This document shows positions 693-6,137 of a stretch of DNA of 6,567 nucleotides, piece by piece. A program made the position numbers and the translations under genes. This DNA is from a virus. Lineage: Duplodnaviria; Heunggongvirae; Uroviricota; Caudoviricetes. The DNA is taken from IMG/VR virus record IMGVR_UViG_2681813316_000019, positions 1-6,567 of that record; one strand, 5' to 3'. The notes under the pieces were generated by a model. That model was not told the origin of the DNA. It saw only the letters and a list, made by a program, of their open reading frames with translations, and did not search any database. Positions within the stretch are counted from its first letter, which is position 1; each line of letters starts with the position of its first letter.

Positions 693-1394
693 TCATACAC
701 TTGCTCCTTTCAGCCCAAACTTAGCTTTGATTTCTGCGATCTTCGCCAGAGCCTGTGCACGATTTAGAGGTCTACCGCCCATAACAGGAAGTTGTTTTAC
801 TGGTTCAGGTATCGTCTCACCACGGTTAATTCGCGCTGTCATACAGGTCAGTTCATCGGCAGCCTTGCGCCGTAATTCCGCGTCAGTCAGCGCATTGGCC
901 CGCATGTTCTGGTACAGGTTGGTAACCAGCCAGTAGTGCGCGTTTGATTTCCATGGATAAGACTCTGCATCCGGATAAAGGCCACGCTTCCGGCAATACT
1001 CGTAAACCATATCAACCAGCTCGCTGGCGTTTGGCAGCCCGGCGTTAACGGATGCTTCTTCCCGGCACCAGGCGACAAACTGCCCGGGTGATGGCAGGAA
1101 TGGTCGATTCTGCCGACGGGCTACGCGCATTCCTGCGTTAACCTGTTCCATTGTGGTGATCCCGTTTTCCCGGAAAGCCAGAACCCACTGGCGGCGGATT
1201 TCGTTCAGTTCGTTCTGGTCACGGTTAGCCAGGCTCGCCGGGAAAGTTGCCAGTAACTGGCTGAACACACCGTTGATGATCTGCGCTACCTGCTGTACCT
1301 GCGGCTTTTCGTCGTACTGTTCCGGCATGTTGTTGGCGATCCGGCGCATCTGCTCACGGTCAAAGTTAACCATCTGTGCGGCGATGTTTTTCAT
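693..1394 (-). CDS. P: Replication protein P (DnaB helicase loader), lambda-type
   Basis: 233-aa translation matches phage lambda P as I remember it almost residue for residue along its whole length (MKNIAAQMVNFDREQMRRIANNMPEQYDEKPQV...AKIAEIKAKFGLKGASV). ATG at 1392-1394 overlaps the TGA stop of the upstream O gene (ATGA). Confidence 0.95.
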   Translation of the reverse strand: MKNIAAQMVNFDREQMRRIANNMPEQYDEKPQVQQVAQIINGVFSQLLATFPASLANRDQNELNEIRRQWVLAFRENGITTMEQVNAGMRVARRQNRPFLPSPGQFVAWCREEASVNAGLPNASELVDMVYEYCRKRGLYPDAESYPWKSNAHYWLVTNLYQNMRANALTDAELRRKAADELTCMTARINRGETIPEPVKQLPVMGGRPLNRAQALAKIAEIKAKFGLKGASV

Positions 1395-2320
1395 AAATCC
1401 ACCCCGTAAATCCAGTCAGTGTTTGTCAGGTCGAGTTTTGATTTTCCGGTTGTCACGCCAGCCTGTTGCTTGTTACGGTTGATTTCGAGTTGGGTCCACT
1501 TGTCGCGGAGTTTGGCCGGACTCAGCACGTTACCGGACCAGAAGTTGTCCTGGCATGCCCAGCGGAACAGCACGCACATGTCGCGGTGGTTACGTCCGTC
1601 ACGTTCACGCATCAGGCGGATATCGTTAGCCCACCCTGCAAAATTCGGTTTTCTGGCTGATGGTGCGATGGTCTTCACCATGTCAAACATCCACTCTGCG
1701 GCGGTCAGGTCTTCTGCTGTCCCCCACTTGCTGCCGCTCTGAATCGCAGCATCCGGTTTCACCACAGGAAGGTCGTTTTCTGGCTGGTCAGAGTATTCGC
1801 CAGAATTCTCGGACGAATAAGGTTTTATATTGTCTTTTGTTAGTTTGTCTTTTGTGTTTACCTGATTCGGGTAAGTGCCTTTACCTGATTTGGGTAAACT
1901 TTTCTTACCTGATTCAGGTAAATTTACCTCTTTCAGGTAAACTTTATTTTTCTTACCTGATTCGGGTAATGTTGACCATTCACTGACCACATTATTAATG
2001 CCGATATTCCGCCCGCTCTGAATAAAAATCCCACGCTTTACCAGAACACTTTTTGCAGCAGAACACTTGTGCGGCAATATCCCGGTCAACTCGGAAAGTT
2101 GCTCGTTGCTCACCCAATCCAGTTTTTTATTAAAGCCATATGTTTTGCGCATGACAGCCAGGAAGACCAGAAGCTGGTGCTGTGTTAATCCGGCCAGCAT
2201 CACAGCTTCCAGCAACTCATTTGCAATGCGCGTATAACCATCATCGAGATCTGCCACGCGCGGCTCCTTTTGTGCCACATCCGGCACTGGAAAATTGAAT
2301 ATCTCAGCAGTGTTTGCCAT
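1391..2320 (-). CDS. O: Replication initiator protein O (origin-binding); C-terminal domain lambda-like, N-terminal DNA-binding region divergent
   Basis: C-terminal about 60 aa (RDMCVLFRWACQDNFWSGNVLSPAKLRDKWTQLEINRNKQQAGVT...LDLTNTDWIYGVDL) matches lambda O closely; the N-terminus MANTAEIFNF resembles lambda O MTNTAKILNF. Start chosen at the ATG at 2318-2320 because it is preceded by GGGAGGAATT (strong SD). The ORF-track extension to 2410 adds 30 residues with no RBS and would overlap the upstream gene. Iterons lie inside the coding region, as in lambda. Confidence 0.9.
   Translation of the reverse strand: MANTAEIFNFPVPDVAQKEPRVADLDDGYTRIANELLEAVMLAGLTQHQLLVFLAVMRKTYGFNKKLDWVSNEQLSELTGILPHKCSAAKSVLVKRGIFIQSGRNIGINNVVSEWSTLPESGKKNKVYLKEVNLPESGKKSLPKSGKGTYPNQVNTKDKLTKDNIKPYSSENSGEYSDQPENDLPVVKPDAAIQSGSKWGTAEDLTAAEWMFDMVKTIAPSARKPNFAGWANDIRLMRERDGRNHRDMCVLFRWACQDNFWSGNVLSPAKLRDKWTQLEINRNKQQAGVTTGKSKLDLTNTDWIYGVDL
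1858..1969. repeat. Origin of replication: five 17-bp iterons (consensus TTACCTGATTCGGGTAA, arms TTACC/GGTAA) inside gene O, with an AT-rich segment at about 1806-1857 on the O-downstream side
   Basis: Seen directly: copies start at 1858, 1881, 1905, 1924 and 1953, each an imperfect palindrome TTACC-N7-GGTAA. The flanking segment 1811-1860 is strongly A+T-rich. Architecture matches ori-lambda (iterons then AT-rich region within O), but the iteron sequence is not the lambda one. Confidence 0.8.
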
Positions 2321-2406
2321 AATTCCTCCCGCAATGAGTGCGTTACGATTTGCACCTGAAAGTCGGCTCTGTTCCCGCAGACCGGCTTTCGCCATTTCTG
2401 AGCCTG

Positions 2407-2952
2407 TCATATTGCCCCCAACATGGTGGTAACCATCGCCATCAATGGACCAGCCAGATCCGGGTCCACACGAAACATCGACACAATACCTTCACTAATT
2501 TCCTTCAGTTTCTGGTGGCGTGGTGCGTTGAGAATGACTGCCTGTTTTGCCTCACTGAGTTCCTTTTCCATTTCAGCCAACCTAGCCATGAAGCTATCCT
2601 GCTCAACCAGGTAACCGCGATATTCCAGCGGTAGTACCGCTAGAATTGCCGGGGTCAGTTCACGCACGTTATTTCGGTATTTTTCAGAATCGAATTTGTT
2701 ATCGAGGAAGCGGAACAGCTTCTGGCGTGCACGGCTGACATCATCAGGGAAATCGATGGCGCCGCCGCCCTGCTCCCGATACTCATTCACAATGAGTGTG
2801 GCAACGACATCCTGATTATCTTCAGCCGACCAGGCGCGGACGGCATCACGGATTTTTTCGTGGCCTGGCACCTGTTTTGTTTGAGAACGATTTATCACCG
2901 CAGTCGGGCTAAATCCGCTAGTCTGTTGGTATGTAAGTGGTTGCATAGTCAT
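2407..2952 (-). CDS. YdaT-like protein at the cII position (function uncertain)
   Basis: 181-aa ORF immediately downstream (24-bp gap) of the Cro-like gene and upstream of O. Segments NEYREQGGG and TPAILAVLPLEYR resemble the Rac-prophage YdaT family as I remember it, which is why I call it YdaT-like. True start may be the second ATG (2944-2946), which has better spacing to an AAGG. Confidence 0.55.
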   Translation of the reverse strand: MTMQPLTYQQTSGFSPTAVINRSQTKQVPGHEKIRDAVRAWSAEDNQDVVATLIVNEYREQGGGAIDFPDDVSRARQKLFRFLDNKFDSEKYRNNVRELTPAILAVLPLEYRGYLVEQDSFMARLAEMEKELSEAKQAVILNAPRHQKLKEISEGIVSMFRVDPDLAGPLMAMVTTMLGAI

Positions 2953-2976
2953 TGCCTTATCAGTTAACGCCGCAGT

Positions 2977-3204
2977 TTAGGCGGCAGAATTACTCGCGTT
3001 AAACAATGGTGCGAGGTCGGGACGAATATCTGCTGGTTTAATCTTTCCACCAGTGGCTGAGACAATTTTCATTACATAGCGGGCATCAATTCCGCCACCG
3101 TGTAGCCAACGCCAAACTGTGGGTTGGGCTACACCGCATAGATCTGCCAGTCGTTTTTGACTACCTGTAATACTGATTGCGAGTTGAATGGTTTGATTTG
3201 TCAT
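2977..3204 (-). CDS. Cro-like small HTH regulator (YdaS-like)
   Basis: 76 aa from the ATG at 3202-3204 (the ORF-track start at 3210 is a TTG). HTH segment GSQKRLADLCGVAQPTVWRW and the downstream IRPDL motif resemble YdaS/Cro-type regulators. Divergent from the repressor gene across a 110-bp operator region. AGGA lies 8 nt upstream. Confidence 0.75.
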   Translation of the reverse strand: MTNQTIQLAISITGSQKRLADLCGVAQPTVWRWLHGGGIDARYVMKIVSATGGKIKPADIRPDLAPLFNASNSAA

Positions 3205-3314
3205 TATCAATTCCTATTGGTATTGCAATGAATGAATAATAGCAATGCGTATTAATCCAAGTAATAGCAAAACGTGTTTTGACCATCAATACGCAAGCGT
3301 ATAAATTAAAACTT
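3205..3314. promoter_or_regulatory. Divergent immunity control region (OR-like): repeated operator motif TAATAGCAA(T) and candidate PR and PRM promoters
   Basis: TAATAGCAAT at 3237-3246 and TAATAGCAA at 3262-3270, plus a related palindromic ATTGCAAT at 3222-3229. Candidate PRM on plus strand: TTGAC(C) 3279-3284, about 16 bp, TATAAA 3300-3305, placing the transcription start at or just before the repressor ATG at 3315. Candidate PR on minus strand: TTGATG (plus coords 3284-3289), 17 bp, TATTAC (3261-3266). Promoter hexamers are by eye, not scored. Confidence 0.55.
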
Positions 3315-4007
3315 ATGAAAAAAGAAACTCTTGCTGATCGCTTAAACCTAGCGATGGAACAATCTGGAATGTCTCAAGGCGCTCTTGCAAAGGCGTCTGG
3401 CGTAGCTCAACCCACAATCTGGAGACTGACAAGCGGCAACGCGCGCGGCTCAACAAAAATTGTTGAAATAGCTAATGCATTGGGTGTTCGAACAGAATGG
3501 CTCTCATCAGGCATAGGCCCGATGAGAAATGACGGTCAACAATCAGGGAAGCCTGCTGTCAGCCATTCAAAATACTTCAAGATTGACGTTCTTGATATAG
3601 AAGTCAGTGCCGGGCCGGGTGTAATCAACCGTGAGTTTGTAGAAGTTCTACGCTCGGTTGAGTACTCGTTTGACGATGCTCGTCACATGTTCGATGGCAG
3701 GAAGGCGGAAAATATCCGCATCATTAACGTGCGTGGTGACAGCATGTCAGGAACGATCGAACCAGGTGATCTTCTGTTCGTTGATATCACGGTTAAATCT
3801 TTCGACGGTGATGGTATCTATGCGTTTCTGTATGACGACACAGCCCATGTAAAGCGCCTGCAAATGATGAAGGATAAGCTGCTGGTTATCTCTGATAACA
3901 AGAGCTACTCACCGTGGGACCCGATCGAGAAAGACGAGATGAACCGGGTATTCATCTTCGGGAAAGTCATCGGAAGCATGCCGCAGACGTATAGGAAGCA
4001 TGGGTAG
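3315..4007 (+). CDS. CI-type prophage repressor: N-terminal HTH_XRE domain plus C-terminal LexA-like S24 peptidase (autocleavable, SOS-inducible type)
   Basis: HTH MSQGALAKASGVAQPTIWRLTSG; candidate Ala-Gly cleavage site in EVSAGPGV; catalytic Ser motif VRGDSMSG and Lys in AHVKRL, as in LexA and lambda CI. Start set at the ATG at 3315 (MKKETL...); the ORF-track start at 3279 is a TTG. No SD precedes 3315. Confidence 0.85.
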   Translation: MKKETLADRLNLAMEQSGMSQGALAKASGVAQPTIWRLTSGNARGSTKIVEIANALGVRTEWLSSGIGPMRNDGQQSGKPAVSHSKYFKIDVLDIEVSAGPGVINREFVEVLRSVEYSFDDARHMFDGRKAENIRIINVRGDSMSGTIEPGDLLFVDITVKSFDGDGIYAFLYDDTAHVKRLQMMKDKLLVISDNKSYSPWDPIEKDEMNRVFIFGKVIGSMPQTYRKHG

Positions 4008-4118
4008 TGAAGGACGTGTCAACTCTATTTTGTAAGCTATCCAGACTCACAGTTGCAGATCGACGAGTAACTTACATACAGCACAAAAAAACAATATGCG
4101 AGTGCTTTTAGACTAGAC

Positions 4119-4133
4119 TTACCATAATGGTAA
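4119..4133. promoter_or_regulatory. 15-bp palindrome TTACCAT-A-ATGGTAA overlapping the first ATG of the toxin-like gene; candidate operator for the module
   Basis: Perfect 7-bp arms seen directly. Resembles the ACCT-N-AGGT type palindromes bound by MqsA-family antitoxins (from memory). Position at the 5' end of the three-gene module. Confidence 0.35.
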
Positions 4134-4537
4134 CAAGTATGATTCTTAGCAGATATGTGGGAACTCCTCCCCGTGATGGCGAGGACAGAAAGATTCAAGG
4201 TGGTCCGCTTTATTTAGATATCATTGATTTGATTGATGAATGTGACACACTGCCTTGGACTAAACGGTGTATCAGGGATGTTCAATCGCTTTCTTTAGAT
4301 GCAGATGACATCAAATCTATGGTGATAAAAGCAGTCACTAAAGGGAGATTTCTAGGTTCAGAATGGTGTCAAGGCAGTAAACCAGGTGTATGGGCAGCTT
4401 GTGATGCTTATAGCTTTGAGCACTCATTTTGGTGCCAAGCTATGCATAAAGAACTTAATAACGAGTTCTACATTAAATTTTTTGTAAACATTACTGGCAA
4501 TGTAGTGCTTACAGTATCTCTTCATCTCTCTAATTGA
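4127..4537 (+). CDS. MqsR-like toxin (RelE-superfamily mRNA interferase fold), putative toxin of a TAC module
   Basis: 136-aa ORF. C-terminal half (DDIKSMVIKAV...WCQAMHKELNNEFYIKFFVNITGNVVLTVSLHLSN) aligns by eye with E. coli MqsR (DFYKSMTT...YLKITVIHDVLIVSFKEK). Toxin-first gene order matches mqsR-mqsA. About 25 N-terminal residues are extra; an alternative start is ATG 4139. No clear SD. Confidence 0.55.
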   Translation: MVTSMILSRYVGTPPRDGEDRKIQGGPLYLDIIDLIDECDTLPWTKRCIRDVQSLSLDADDIKSMVIKAVTKGRFLGSEWCQGSKPGVWAACDAYSFEHSFWCQAMHKELNNEFYIKFFVNITGNVVLTVSLHLSN

Positions 4538-4561
4538 GTGATGATAAATGAGGATTTTTAT

Positions 4562-5149
4562 ATGAGAAACAACAACATATGTCCAGTTTGTGGTGTAGGT
4601 CATCTCACCGTGGAGATGGAGTATGATGATGTTACTTATAAAGGGGAAACAAAAAATCTCCCAATAAGGTTTTCTGTGTGTGATCAATGTGGTTCGGAAA
4701 CTGCCACACCAGTCGATTTACGAGAAAACAAACGAATTTTCAATGAATACAAAAAGTCTATCGATGGACTTTTAACAGGAAAAGAATTAAAAAAAATTAG
4801 AACTGAAGTATGGATGATAACCCAGCAAAAGGCATCCTCTATATTTGGTGGGGGGCCTAAGGCATTTTCCAAGTATGAATCTGATGATGTCATTCAATCA
4901 GAAGCAATGGATAAACTGATGCGTTTAGCAGCAGAAGTTCCTGATGCATTCAAAAGGTTACGGGAATTATCTGGCGAAATCAAAGTTGAAAGAACAGTCT
5001 CATCATCTAAATCTTTACCTATATGGAAATCTGAAGCAAAAGCACAATTTGAAAACGATGATCAGGGATTTGACAGCAAATCACCAGCCCAAACAAAAAT
5101 GAATCAAACATCAATAAAGATAAAAACTGTTGCTAAGCGGGTAGCATGA
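4562..5149 (+). CDS. MqsA-like antitoxin: N-terminal zinc ribbon (CPVC...CDQC) plus HTH_XRE domain, with a C-terminal extension of about 55-60 aa
   Basis: ICPVCGVGH...CDQCGSE resembles the MqsA Zn-binding domain (MKCPVCHQGE...YCVHCEE). ITQQKASSIFGGGPKAFSKYESDD matches the MqsA HTH region LTQKEASEIFGGGVNAFSRYEKGN. Start placed at ATG 4562, preceded by GAGGA with a 7-nt spacer; the ORF-track start at 4538 is GTG. The protein is about 65 aa longer than E. coli MqsA, mostly at the C-terminus. Confidence 0.75.
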   Translation: MRNNNICPVCGVGHLTVEMEYDDVTYKGETKNLPIRFSVCDQCGSETATPVDLRENKRIFNEYKKSIDGLLTGKELKKIRTEVWMITQQKASSIFGGGPKAFSKYESDDVIQSEAMDKLMRLAAEVPDAFKRLRELSGEIKVERTVSSSKSLPIWKSEAKAQFENDDQGFDSKSPAQTKMNQTSIKIKTVAKRVA

Positions 5150-5649
5150 TGAATGAACTTCTTAGATCAGCAATAGACGCATTATCAATAATGCATATCA
5201 ATATCAGAGAATCTAACTTTGCTTTTTCTGAAGGGTATAATAGCTTTAACTTCAACAGCATAAATAAGCAAACACAATCATTTCGTAAGATAAAAAAAAT
5301 CGAAGCTATTGAATTAGTAAGTGACGATGACTCATTAAAAAATGAGCTATATTACTCTTTTCACTACTCAGTTGGGCTTAGATTTATTGCAAAATCCGAA
5401 GAAACATCTAAAGACGAAAATGATGTTGATACAATTTTTTCTATAGAAGCAATTTTTGAGGCGATATATCGCTCAAAAAGAGAATTATCTAAAGAAGAGT
5501 TAGAAGAATTTGCTAAGCAAAATGTAGGTTTTAATGTATGGCCTTTTTGGCGAGAGTATGTTCAAAACAGCACATCCAGAATGGGAATTACTACAATAGC
5601 TATACCATTCTTTAAATTCAATAAATCAGACATACCTTCATTAGATTAA
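5146..5649 (+). CDS. SecB-like chaperone, putative third component of a TAC module
   Basis: 167 aa. C-terminal segment FNVWPFWREYVQNSTSRMGITTIAIPFFKF matches the conserved SecB segment [34 protein letters not shown]; IFSI and an acidic central region also align. Start ATG overlaps the antitoxin stop (ATGA at 5146-5149), suggesting translational coupling. Hand-counted G+C on one sample line is about one third. Confidence 0.6.
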   Translation: MMNELLRSAIDALSIMHINIRESNFAFSEGYNSFNFNSINKQTQSFRKIKKIEAIELVSDDDSLKNELYYSFHYSVGLRFIAKSEETSKDENDVDTIFSIEAIFEAIYRSKRELSKEELEEFAKQNVGFNVWPFWREYVQNSTSRMGITTIAIPFFKFNKSDIPSLD

Positions 5650-5663
5650 ATTCAAATATAACT

Positions 5664-5690
5664 CCCGGCTACCGTGCCGGGTTTTCTTTT
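5664..5690 (+). terminator. Rho-independent terminator ending the repressor-side operon (t_imm equivalent)
   Basis: CCCGGC-TACCGT-GCCGGG hairpin (6-bp GC stem) followed directly by TTTTCTTTT, 15 bp after the stop of the SecB-like gene. Confidence 0.8.
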
Positions 5691-5780
5691 GTCCCCTCCC
5701 CTCATCACACACCGTTCAAAAAACCACCACGACCTCACTTCAGTTATCGCTATGCGATGCAAGTCACAAAATTAATTCTT

Positions 5781-5860
5781 TTTGCTATCAAACATTTAAT
5801 ATCAAAACACATCAACTAATAGCAATAAGTATTGATATCACCAATAGCAATAGCTATTAT
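5781..5860 (+). promoter_or_regulatory. OL/PL-like region: operator motif copies shared with the OR region, overlapping a candidate sigma70 promoter for the leftward early operon
   Basis: TAATAGCAAT at 5817-5826 (exact 10-mer also at 3237-3246), AATAGCAAT at 5843-5851 adjoining palindrome AATAGCTATT (5849-5858), and reverse-oriented TTTGCTAT at 5781-5788. Candidate promoter: TTGATA 5832-5837, 17-bp spacer, TATTAT 5855-5860, with operator copies in the spacer. Confidence 0.55.
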
Positions 5861-6137
5861 CACCATATCGCAACAACACAACGATACGGCAACCACCTGA
5901 TTCACCGTTGCGATGACCGCTTAGATCCGCAGCTTGAATTTCAGCAGGCTTCGGGGAGTGCGAGGGATGAAACGGACGCGTGAACGTCGGTGTGACCAGC
6001 TGAAATCAACTCAACATTTCATACCTTAGTCGCTTCAACGAGGCGGCTTAGTTATGACAACCGGCGGCCATCCACCGCCTGAATACGCGCAGAAGTCTTT
6101 ATATGTTCAGCAGCCCAGCTTACGGGCAGGAGTTTTT

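Follow-up and report, generated by a model that had tools for sequence, protein, structure and literature searches.

This locus raises the question of how a lambdoid prophage repressor is expressed when promoter-like hexamers almost touch its ATG and a Shine-Dalgarno (SD) sequence is missing. The whole stretch of DNA that was analysed (the window, 6,567 nt) is the immunity region of a lambdoid prophage. The original prediction placed a PRM-like promoter directly at the SD-less start codon and expected a leaderless mRNA like that of lambda cI. Support for this reading comes from the promoter score, the geometry of the operators, conservation, and mapped cases, and a PRM transcript starting at A3315 and translated from its 5'-terminal AUG is predicted with a probability of about 0.8.

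Gene content of the immunity region

The genes and the terminator recognized in the window are as follows.
693-1394, minus strand: P gene.
1391-2410, minus strand: O gene.
2407-2952, minus strand: YdaT-type 'cII' gene, downstream of cro.
2977-3204, minus strand: cro-like gene of the YdaS family, 75 aa (Pfam YdaS_toxin, 9.6e-15), divergent from the repressor gene.
3315-4007, plus strand: cI-type repressor gene, 230 aa, with a 434-like HTH (Pfam HTH_3) and an S24 autocleavage domain (Pfam Peptidase_S24).
4127-5690, plus strand: accessory genes in the rexAB position, coding for an unknown protein of 136 aa, an MqsA-family antitoxin, and a SecB-like protein, then an intrinsic terminator.
5664-5690, plus strand: the intrinsic terminator that ends the accessory module.
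Past the terminator, plus strand: PL-like promoter, then a kil-like gene.

The solved structure closest to the DNA-binding domain of the repressor is that of the phage 434 repressor (1.6e-5; residues 7-66 aligned with its residues 4-63), and the Peptidase_S24 domain was matched with 1.3e-18. The Ala-Gly 99-100 cleavage site, Ser143, and Lys180 are invariant in 19 homologues, and the protein is predicted to be an autocleavable repressor of the LexA/CI type. The product of the YdaS-type cro has weak similarity to solved Cro-type structures. The SD of cro is AGGAA (TTCCT on the plus strand, 3211-3215), located 6 nt ahead of ATG 3204.

The accessory module matches TIGR03830 (6.9e-33), Pfam SecB (0.008), and PADLOC PD-T4-9_C (7e-4). 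No terminator was found between 4007 and 4127 in a scan of the window, and the three accessory genes are likely co-transcribed with the repressor. A promoter-like site on the plus strand at 2295-2323 occupies the position of the OOP RNA. The Rfam scan of the entire window gave nothing relevant, and folding of the PL leader (5867-6056) revealed no unusual structure (z = -0.5).

Operators and divergent promoters

The intergenic region between the repressor and cro genes is 110 bp long and has a G+C content of 30%. The following elements were predicted there and near the PL-like promoter.
3236-3244, minus strand: PR-like extended -10 TGcTATTAT (PWM 7.4, rank 24).
3264-3259, minus strand: PR-like -35 TTACTT, weak, with a 17-bp spacer.
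3238-3253: operator B (OR1-like), AATAGCAATGCGTATT, of the direct-repeat family, overlapping the PR -10 and spacer; centre at -69.5 from A3315.
3263-3278: operator C (OR2-like), AATAGCAAAACGTGTT, overlapping the PR -35 by 2 bp and adjoining the PRM -35; centre at -44.5.
3288-3303: operator A (OR3-like), AATACGCAAGCGTATA, covering the PRM spacer and the first 2 bp of the -10; centre at -19.5.
5818-5860, plus strand: OL/PL-like region with the same motif and the same 25-bp spacing as at OR.
5818-5833 and 5843-5858: OL operators AATAGCAATAAGTATT and AATAGCAATAGCTATT, overlapping the promoter TTGATA-17-TATTAT (5832-5860).

The 16-bp operator motif is present three times in register, at 3238, 3263, and 3288, with a spacing of 25 bp, and the motif search returned 7 matches where 0.79 were expected. 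Only two clear sites are present at OL, where the best copy, AATAGCAATAGCTATT, displays the symmetry AATAGC-N4-GCTATT. In 20 unique relatives the operators are nearly invariant; TATTAT and TG of PR are also kept, with TTGCTT, TTGTTA, TTGCCT, or TTGCTA as the PR -35. The cro transcript is predicted to start near 3229 and to have a 25-nt leader that carries AGGAA.

Three predicted operators thus lie between divergent promoters, each promoter is overlapped by an operator, and a second cluster lies at the PL-like promoter. As far as it can be read from the DNA, this arrangement is the tripartite layout of lambda OR, though with another DNA specificity. Both the repressor and the YdaS-type Cro would bind the 16-bp operators AATAGC-N4-GCTATT. 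Operator A, lying over the PRM spacer and -10, would mediate repression by Cro and negative autoregulation by excess repressor. Operator C, adjoining the PRM -35 and overlapping the PR -35, and operator B, covering the PR -10, would complete the logic of lambda OR.

Promoter and start codon of the repressor gene

The promoter elements predicted before the repressor gene are as follows.
3279-3284, plus strand: PRM-like -35 hexamer TTGACC, identical to the consensus in 5/6 positions (promoter scan and PWM).
3302-3307, plus strand: PRM-like -10 hexamer TAAATT, with a 17-bp spacer (promoter scan and PWM).
3308-3314, plus strand: discriminator AAAACTT, 7 nt, fixed in length and variable in sequence.

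In the original prediction TTGACC was paired with TATAAA (3300-3305). Reading of the sequence placed both hexamers and the ATG (3315-3317) exactly where they had been reported, but the spacer, given as about 16 bp, is 15 bp, and the upstream string GCGTATAAATTAAAACTT, given as 20 nt, is 18 nt long (3297-3314). The choice of the -10 hexamer had to be revised too. When configurations were scored by a simple sigma-70 weight matrix with a spacer penalty, and with frequencies after published compilations, TTGACC-15-TATAAA reached 5.85 bits (rank 77 in the window), whereas the well-spaced TTGACC-17-TAAATT reached 12.14 bits and was second among 65,320 configurations on both window strands. The top-ranked promoter of the window is the PL-like TTGATA-17-TATTAT. 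TTGACC-17-TAAATT was also the sole promoter-like site reported by the scanning tool on the plus strand of the intergenic region.

The sigma-70 -10 hexamer TAAATT ends 7 nt before ATG 3315, within a distance of 6-8 nt from the A of the start codon. An equally good promoter whose -10 was 5-8 nt away from the ATG arose in 21 of 20,000 dinucleotide shuffles of the intergenic region (p ~0.001), so the presence of a PRM-like promoter at the ATG is more than chance.

The claim that an SD is missing was confirmed. The best pairing with the 3' end of 16S rRNA within 22 nt upstream of ATG 3315 has only -0.1 kcal/mol, compared with -4.2 for cro, -6.6 for P, -8.4 for O, -6.4 for the SecB-like gene, and -7.3 kcal/mol for the kil-like gene. 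Ribosomes recognize a 5'-terminal AUG on leaderless mRNA, as shown for lambda cI, and for efficient leaderless initiation in E. coli the start has to be AUG and not GUG or UUG. The start codon is ATG in the window and in every same-immunity relative. Within its first 15 nt, the predicted mRNA is unpaired (mean P = 0.89) and rich in A, as in lambda cI and paaR2.

In a lysogen, sigma-70 RNA polymerase would use TTGACC-17-TAAATT as the maintenance promoter, equivalent to PRM, and transcription would start at A3315, the first base of the repressor AUG. An mRNA with this start would therefore have neither a 5' leader nor an SD. Its translation would proceed by the leaderless route, and the unstructured A-rich 5' end AUGAAAAAAGAAACU should help there.

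Two further observations concern the exact position of the start. The gap of 7 nt, against 6 in lambda and CP-933P, counts against a start at the A itself; transcription may start at T3314 instead, which would give a 1-nt leader. Some transcripts could begin at 3310-3313, directed by the overlapping TATAAA.

The start codon itself is annotated inconsistently. Among gene callers the lengths of the repressor are 211, 217, 230-235, or 241-255 aa, a disagreement which is to be expected because an SD is missing. PGAP calls ATG 3315 as the start in E. coli genomes, the reference annotation of BTP1 cI takes the TTG of the -35 hexamer, M19 is the start in many Salmonella records (211 aa), and in the record of Klebsiella phage 6 LV-2017 the start is about 200 nt too late. 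The open reading frame reaches back to 3243, and these public annotations could speak for another start codon, either TTG 3279 (a 242-aa protein, as in the BTP1 annotation) or an internal ATG such as M19 at 3369. This is very improbable. TTG 3279, the only start candidate upstream, coincides with the -35 hexamer and is not preceded by an SD (-0.2 kcal/mol), and the extension from it is not conserved as protein between immunity types. Of the internal ATGs, M14 has no SD (+0.6 kcal/mol) and M19 a weak one (-3.3 kcal/mol), and with a start at either the HTH domain would lose its helix 1. M1 (ATG 3315) is favoured as the protein start by alignments of the domains and by the conserved N-terminus, the motif M-K/Q/N-x-x-T/S-L/F-A/S-D/E-R-L from M1 being common to heteroimmune homologues.

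The part of the original prediction which stated that the hexamers are closer to consensus than those of lambda PRM holds for the -35, with 6.4 bits for TTGACC and 2.7 for TAGATA in lambda, but not for the -10, as TAAATT and TAGATT both score 5.8 bits. Given the near-consensus -35, it is plausible that regulation of the repressor differs from that in lambda. Tentatively, the near-consensus -35 and the discriminator composed fully of A and T could make PRM strong and independent of activation by the repressor; the amount of repressor would then possibly depend on negative autoregulation through the OR3-like site and on inefficient leaderless translation, and not on positive autoregulation.

Conservation and alternative explanations

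The same immunity region was found in 721 of 5,426 complete E. coli genomes (13%), including O157:H7 strains, UPEC 536, and LF82, and in coliphages PhiR70_1, 4A7, and Perceval. Klebsiella phages carry it at about 75% identity, and it is also present in the Salmonella P22-like phages ST104, SE1, ST160, and BTP1. The Sp9 prophage of O157:H7 Sakai was ruled out as a carrier of the repressor, its own repressor having 136 aa.

Alignment of 20 unique relatives from many genera revealed no variation in the -35, the -10, or the ATG, but heavy variation in the inter-operator spacer 3254-3262, in the 3 nt after the -35, and in the 7-nt gap between -10 and ATG. Of 102 metagenome contigs, 101 have the complete string TTGACC-17-TAAATT-7-ATG; their gap occurs in 14 sequences, each of 7 nt and with a pyrimidine at -1. 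No contigs beginning at the ATG, as transcript-like molecules would, were found among the metagenome matches, and the 102 matches served as conservation data. In all sources together, 16 distinct gap sequences were recognized, always 7 nt long and always with T or C at -1. In MASTER studies, start sites reportedly prefer a pyrimidine at -1 and a purine at +1. The constant pyrimidine fits start-site selection at the A of the ATG, as judged from the alignments.

It was considered whether TTGACC and TAAATT are merely flanks of the operators, with a coincidental likeness to a promoter, as the direct repeats reach 3 nt past the 16-bp core (19-nt family D1). However, relatives differ freely in the corresponding flanks of operator B (3254-3262) but not in TTGACC and AATT, and the OL operators have no flanks of the TTGACC/AATT type. 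Operator function does not explain the invariance of TTGACC and AATT (3304-3307), because TTGACC lies in the inter-operator spacer and AATT outside operator A. Moreover, heteroimmune relatives with unrelated operators have hexamers similar to -35 and -10 at the same distances from the ATG, which leaves a coincidence extremely improbable.

In these heteroimmune homologues the recognition helices differ and the operators are unrelated; the geometry of promoter and ATG is retained, with a gap of 6-7 nt and without an SD. The arrangement is TTGATG-17-TACATT-6-ATG in E. coli (L090), TTGATG-17-TAAATT with 6 nt to the second of two tandem ATGs in Klebsiella (L021), and CTGATA-17-TATGAT-7-ATG in Kluyvera and Klebsiella (L022, L035). 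Leaderlessness is not universal in the family, because a 76%-identical homologue (L020, with GGAGG) and many distant homologues bear a strong SD (-8 to -13 kcal/mol); judging from these sites, their mRNAs are presumably leadered. A large group of repressors with 40% identity (MNIGN, MKIGD) has TnnAAT 6-7 nt before an SD-less ATG and no canonical A at position 2 of the -10. The group was set aside as ambiguous on account of this position and is not used as support for the leaderless geometry.

A near-leaderless transcript directed by TATAAA (3300-3305), with a start at about 3310-3313 and a leader of 2-5 nt, is unlikely. The hexamer is identical to the consensus in 5/6 positions and is as conserved as TAAATT, since the two overlap. 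Nevertheless, its spacer is 15 bp, it has no key T at position 6, and its PWM score is 5.85 against 12.14 bits. Also, T3306 and T3307 are invariant though they lie outside TATAAA and outside the operator, and the pyrimidine that always precedes the A of the ATG agrees with a start there and not with a start directed by TATAAA.

It is quite unlikely that the repressor is made mainly from a leadered transcript, coming from an establishment promoter (PRE-like, activated by YdaT or CII) or from read-through, with SD-independent initiation on an AU-rich leader and with the hexamers not working as a maintenance promoter. Lambda and CP-933P do own a PRE-type promoter besides PRM (PMC9986795), a YdaT-type gene is located downstream of cro in the window, and the sequence upstream of the ATG is AU-rich. 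On the other hand, promoter scans revealed no promoter-like site on the plus strand between 2324 and 3278. Expression from PRE only would leave unexplained the invariant -35 and -10, the fixed 7-nt gap, and the expression in established lysogens, where CII-type activators are off. The same OR module occurs with either a YdaT-type or a lambda CII-type gene and is thus independent of one activator. Besides the transcript from PRM, a leadered one from establishment or read-through may well be made too, as in lambda.

Comparison with known leaderless repressors

In E. coli, leaderless mRNAs are rare but have repeatedly been seen at prophage repressor genes, as in lambda, CP-933P, Rac, and PY54. 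These examples would be joined by an immunity type that is widespread, with 721 carriers among 5,426 complete E. coli genomes besides BTP1 and its relatives. Recognition of the promoter also corrects the inconsistent annotation of the repressor start (the TTG in BTP1, Met19 in Salmonella, and the late start in the Klebsiella phage). The anti-phage genes downstream of cI, BstA in BTP1 and the MqsA/SecB-like trio here, probably share the repressor promoter; if so, its strength and regulation would set the expression level of defence genes in lysogens. The strings of the operators, the promoter, and the N-terminus were not found in the searchable literature, and no mapped 5' end for this immunity type was found in the accessible text.

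The window resembles lambda in the divergent cI and cro, in the three operators between back-to-back promoters, and in having no usable SD. An OR3-like site lies at about -19 over the PRM spacer and -10, an OR2-like site is beside the PRM -35, a gap of 6-7 nt separates the -10 from the A of the ATG, and the 5' coding region is A-rich. Accessory genes and a terminator are located between cI and OL/PL in both. AAAAAAGAAA is common to the 5' ends of the window's repressor gene, lambda cI, and paaR2. Lambda PRM, TAGATA-17-TAGATT, scored 9.48 with the same matrix and has a gap of 6 nt; the gap is 7 nt in the window. Operators are 16 bp long with 25-bp spacing here but 17 bp long and spaced 23 and 24 bp in lambda, where the centres of OR3, OR2, and OR1 are at -19, -42, and -66 from the PRM start, compared with -19.5, -44.5, and -69.5 from A3315. 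The window differs from lambda also in its 434-like DNA-binding domain, YdaS-type Cro, YdaT-type 'cII', and the extended -10 of PR with a weak -35.

In CP-933P, the start of PRM933P was mapped to the translation start by 5' RACE, and N-terminal sequencing confirmed that the mRNA of PaaR2 is leaderless (PMC8630535). PRM933P is TTGCTT-17-GATAAT-6-ATG with a pyrimidine at -1 and an A-rich 5' end, AUGCAAAAAAAAGAAA. CP-933P also has a YdaS/YdaT-type lytic arm and a toxin-antitoxin module downstream of the repressor. PaaR2, however, is a 15-kDa protein that was not matched in the PDB search with the window's repressor. CP-933P has GTTTAGTAA repeats as operators, with four inverted repeats, and an intergenic region of 97 bp, whereas that of the window has 110 bp. 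The YdaT of the window is only remotely related to that of CP-933P (E = 0.0017). A match with 1 mismatch to the CP-933P YdaT box (3193-3210) was rejected as a PRE-type site, as the window's YdaT is remote and the repeat is not kept in relatives.

The mRNAs of RacR (from PracR3) and PY54 cI were mapped as leaderless with a start at the AUG (PMC9638921, PMC4488713). Their operators are unrelated to those of the window. RacR has two additional leadered promoters, and PY54 cro is leaderless too, while the window's cro would have a 25-nt leader with an SD.

Salmonella phage BTP1 shares this immunity type. It has the same operators and the same TTGACC-17-TAAATT-7-ATG, and its repressor is 86-87% identical (as in ST104, SE1, and ST160). 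A defence gene is located downstream of cI in both, but BTP1 has a P22-like backbone, a lambda-type CII instead of YdaT, and BstA instead of the MqsA/SecB-like trio. According to the accessible text of the BTP1 paper, the cI-bstA operon is highly expressed in lysogens and has a single dRNA-seq start site; in this text the mRNA is not called leaderless and the start-site coordinate is not given (PMC7067206). The supplements of Canals 2019 contain no start-site table. Four peptides of the cI protein of BTP1 were detected (PMC6333337 S7 Table), and the CI of Perceval was 11-fold above the prophage background in LF82, as expression level only (PMC9928086). From the BTP1 sequence, the primary 5' end of cI (STMMW_03541 of S. 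Typhimurium D23580) is predicted at position 379527 of FN424405, minus strand, located 36 nt within the coding sequence as annotated (378838-379563). With such a start, the leaderless repressor of this immunity type would be a further example of the arrangement known from lambda, CP-933P, Rac, and PY54.

Repressor gene: composition, 5' coding sequence and annotated starts

The repressor genes of six coliphages match that of the window in the C-terminal two-thirds only, with 95-96% identity and a match boundary at window position ~3556 (query position 607). The boundary puts the recombination junction within the linker that connects the DNA-binding domain to the S24 domain. Immunity specificity is swapped as a module.

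The sequence AAAAAAGAAA directly 3' of the AUG is common to three repressor mRNAs, namely those of the window (3315-3329), lambda cI (L089) and paaR2 of prophage CP-933P (L092, 7311-7338), all of them leaderless or predicted to be leaderless. It could be an mRNA-level feature favouring leaderless translation, or it could simply reflect the lysine-rich N-terminal arms.

Annotation of the repressor start codon is inconsistent across the records (L140 1245-1283, L002 2013 and the sequence P0035). For Salmonella phage BTP1 cI (L140, NC_042346.1, 1245-1283) the TTG within the -35 hexamer is annotated as the start codon. The C2 CDS of Klebsiella phage 6 LV-2017 (L002, 2013) is annotated to start about 200 nt too late, and in many of the Salmonella records the protein has 211 aa and begins with Met19.

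Genes and signals downstream of the repressor

The rexAB position (4127-5649) is occupied by a module of three genes, followed by a terminator and operators:

4127-5649, first of three genes: 136-aa protein with no assigned family
within 4127-5649: MqsA-family antitoxin (TIGR03830, 6.9e-33)
within 4127-5649: SecB-like protein (Pfam SecB, 0.008; PADLOC PD-T4-9_C, 7e-4)
5664-5690: intrinsic terminator, end of the repressor operon
5818-5833 and 5843-5858: two OL operators at 25-bp spacing, downstream of the terminator

The module looks like a toxin-antitoxin-chaperone system and is possibly anti-phage cargo. Its first gene has no Shine-Dalgarno sequence, and the start of this gene is overlapped by a promoter-like site at 4114-4143.

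Both OL operators overlie TTGATA-17-TATTAT, the best promoter in the window and the PL equivalent; these two, rather than three, are the only clear sites found in 5664-5860. The interval from this promoter to the kil-like gene (5861-6053; kil-like gene: FtsZ-inhibitor family, 9e-16) contains no N-like ORF of at least 40 aa, whereas Salmonella relatives with the same immunity have an N gene at the equivalent position. The leader of about 190 nt upstream of the kil-like gene has no Rfam match, and its predicted structure is not unusual (z = -0.5).

PR, cro and the antisense promoter-like site

The -35 hexamer of PR (3259-3264, minus strand) is TTACTT in the window and TTGCTT, TTGTTA, TTGCCT or TTGCTA in the nearest relatives. 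The conserved G was lost through a single plus-strand C-to-T change, which may make the window's PR a weaker promoter. Two further elements lie leftward of PR:

2295-2323, plus strand: TTGAAT-17-(TGc)CATAAT, a promoter-like site located within the 5' end of O
2969-2985, minus strand: stem-loop GCCGC-CTAAACT-GCGGC, overlapping the cro stop codon just upstream of the YdaT-type gene

The promoter-like site faces the YdaT-type gene and points into its 3' end in antisense orientation; in lambda, the OOP RNA promoter sits at this position. An OOP-like RNA was reported in BTP1 (PMC7067206).

The repeat TTGATTTGTCATTATCAA at 3193-3210 spans the cro start codon and has one mismatch to the CP-933P YdaT box, TTGATTN6AATCAA; it is lost in more distant relatives. 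The YdaT protein of the window is only remotely related to that of CP-933P. The stem-loop at 2969-2985 stands where nutR boxB lies in lambda.
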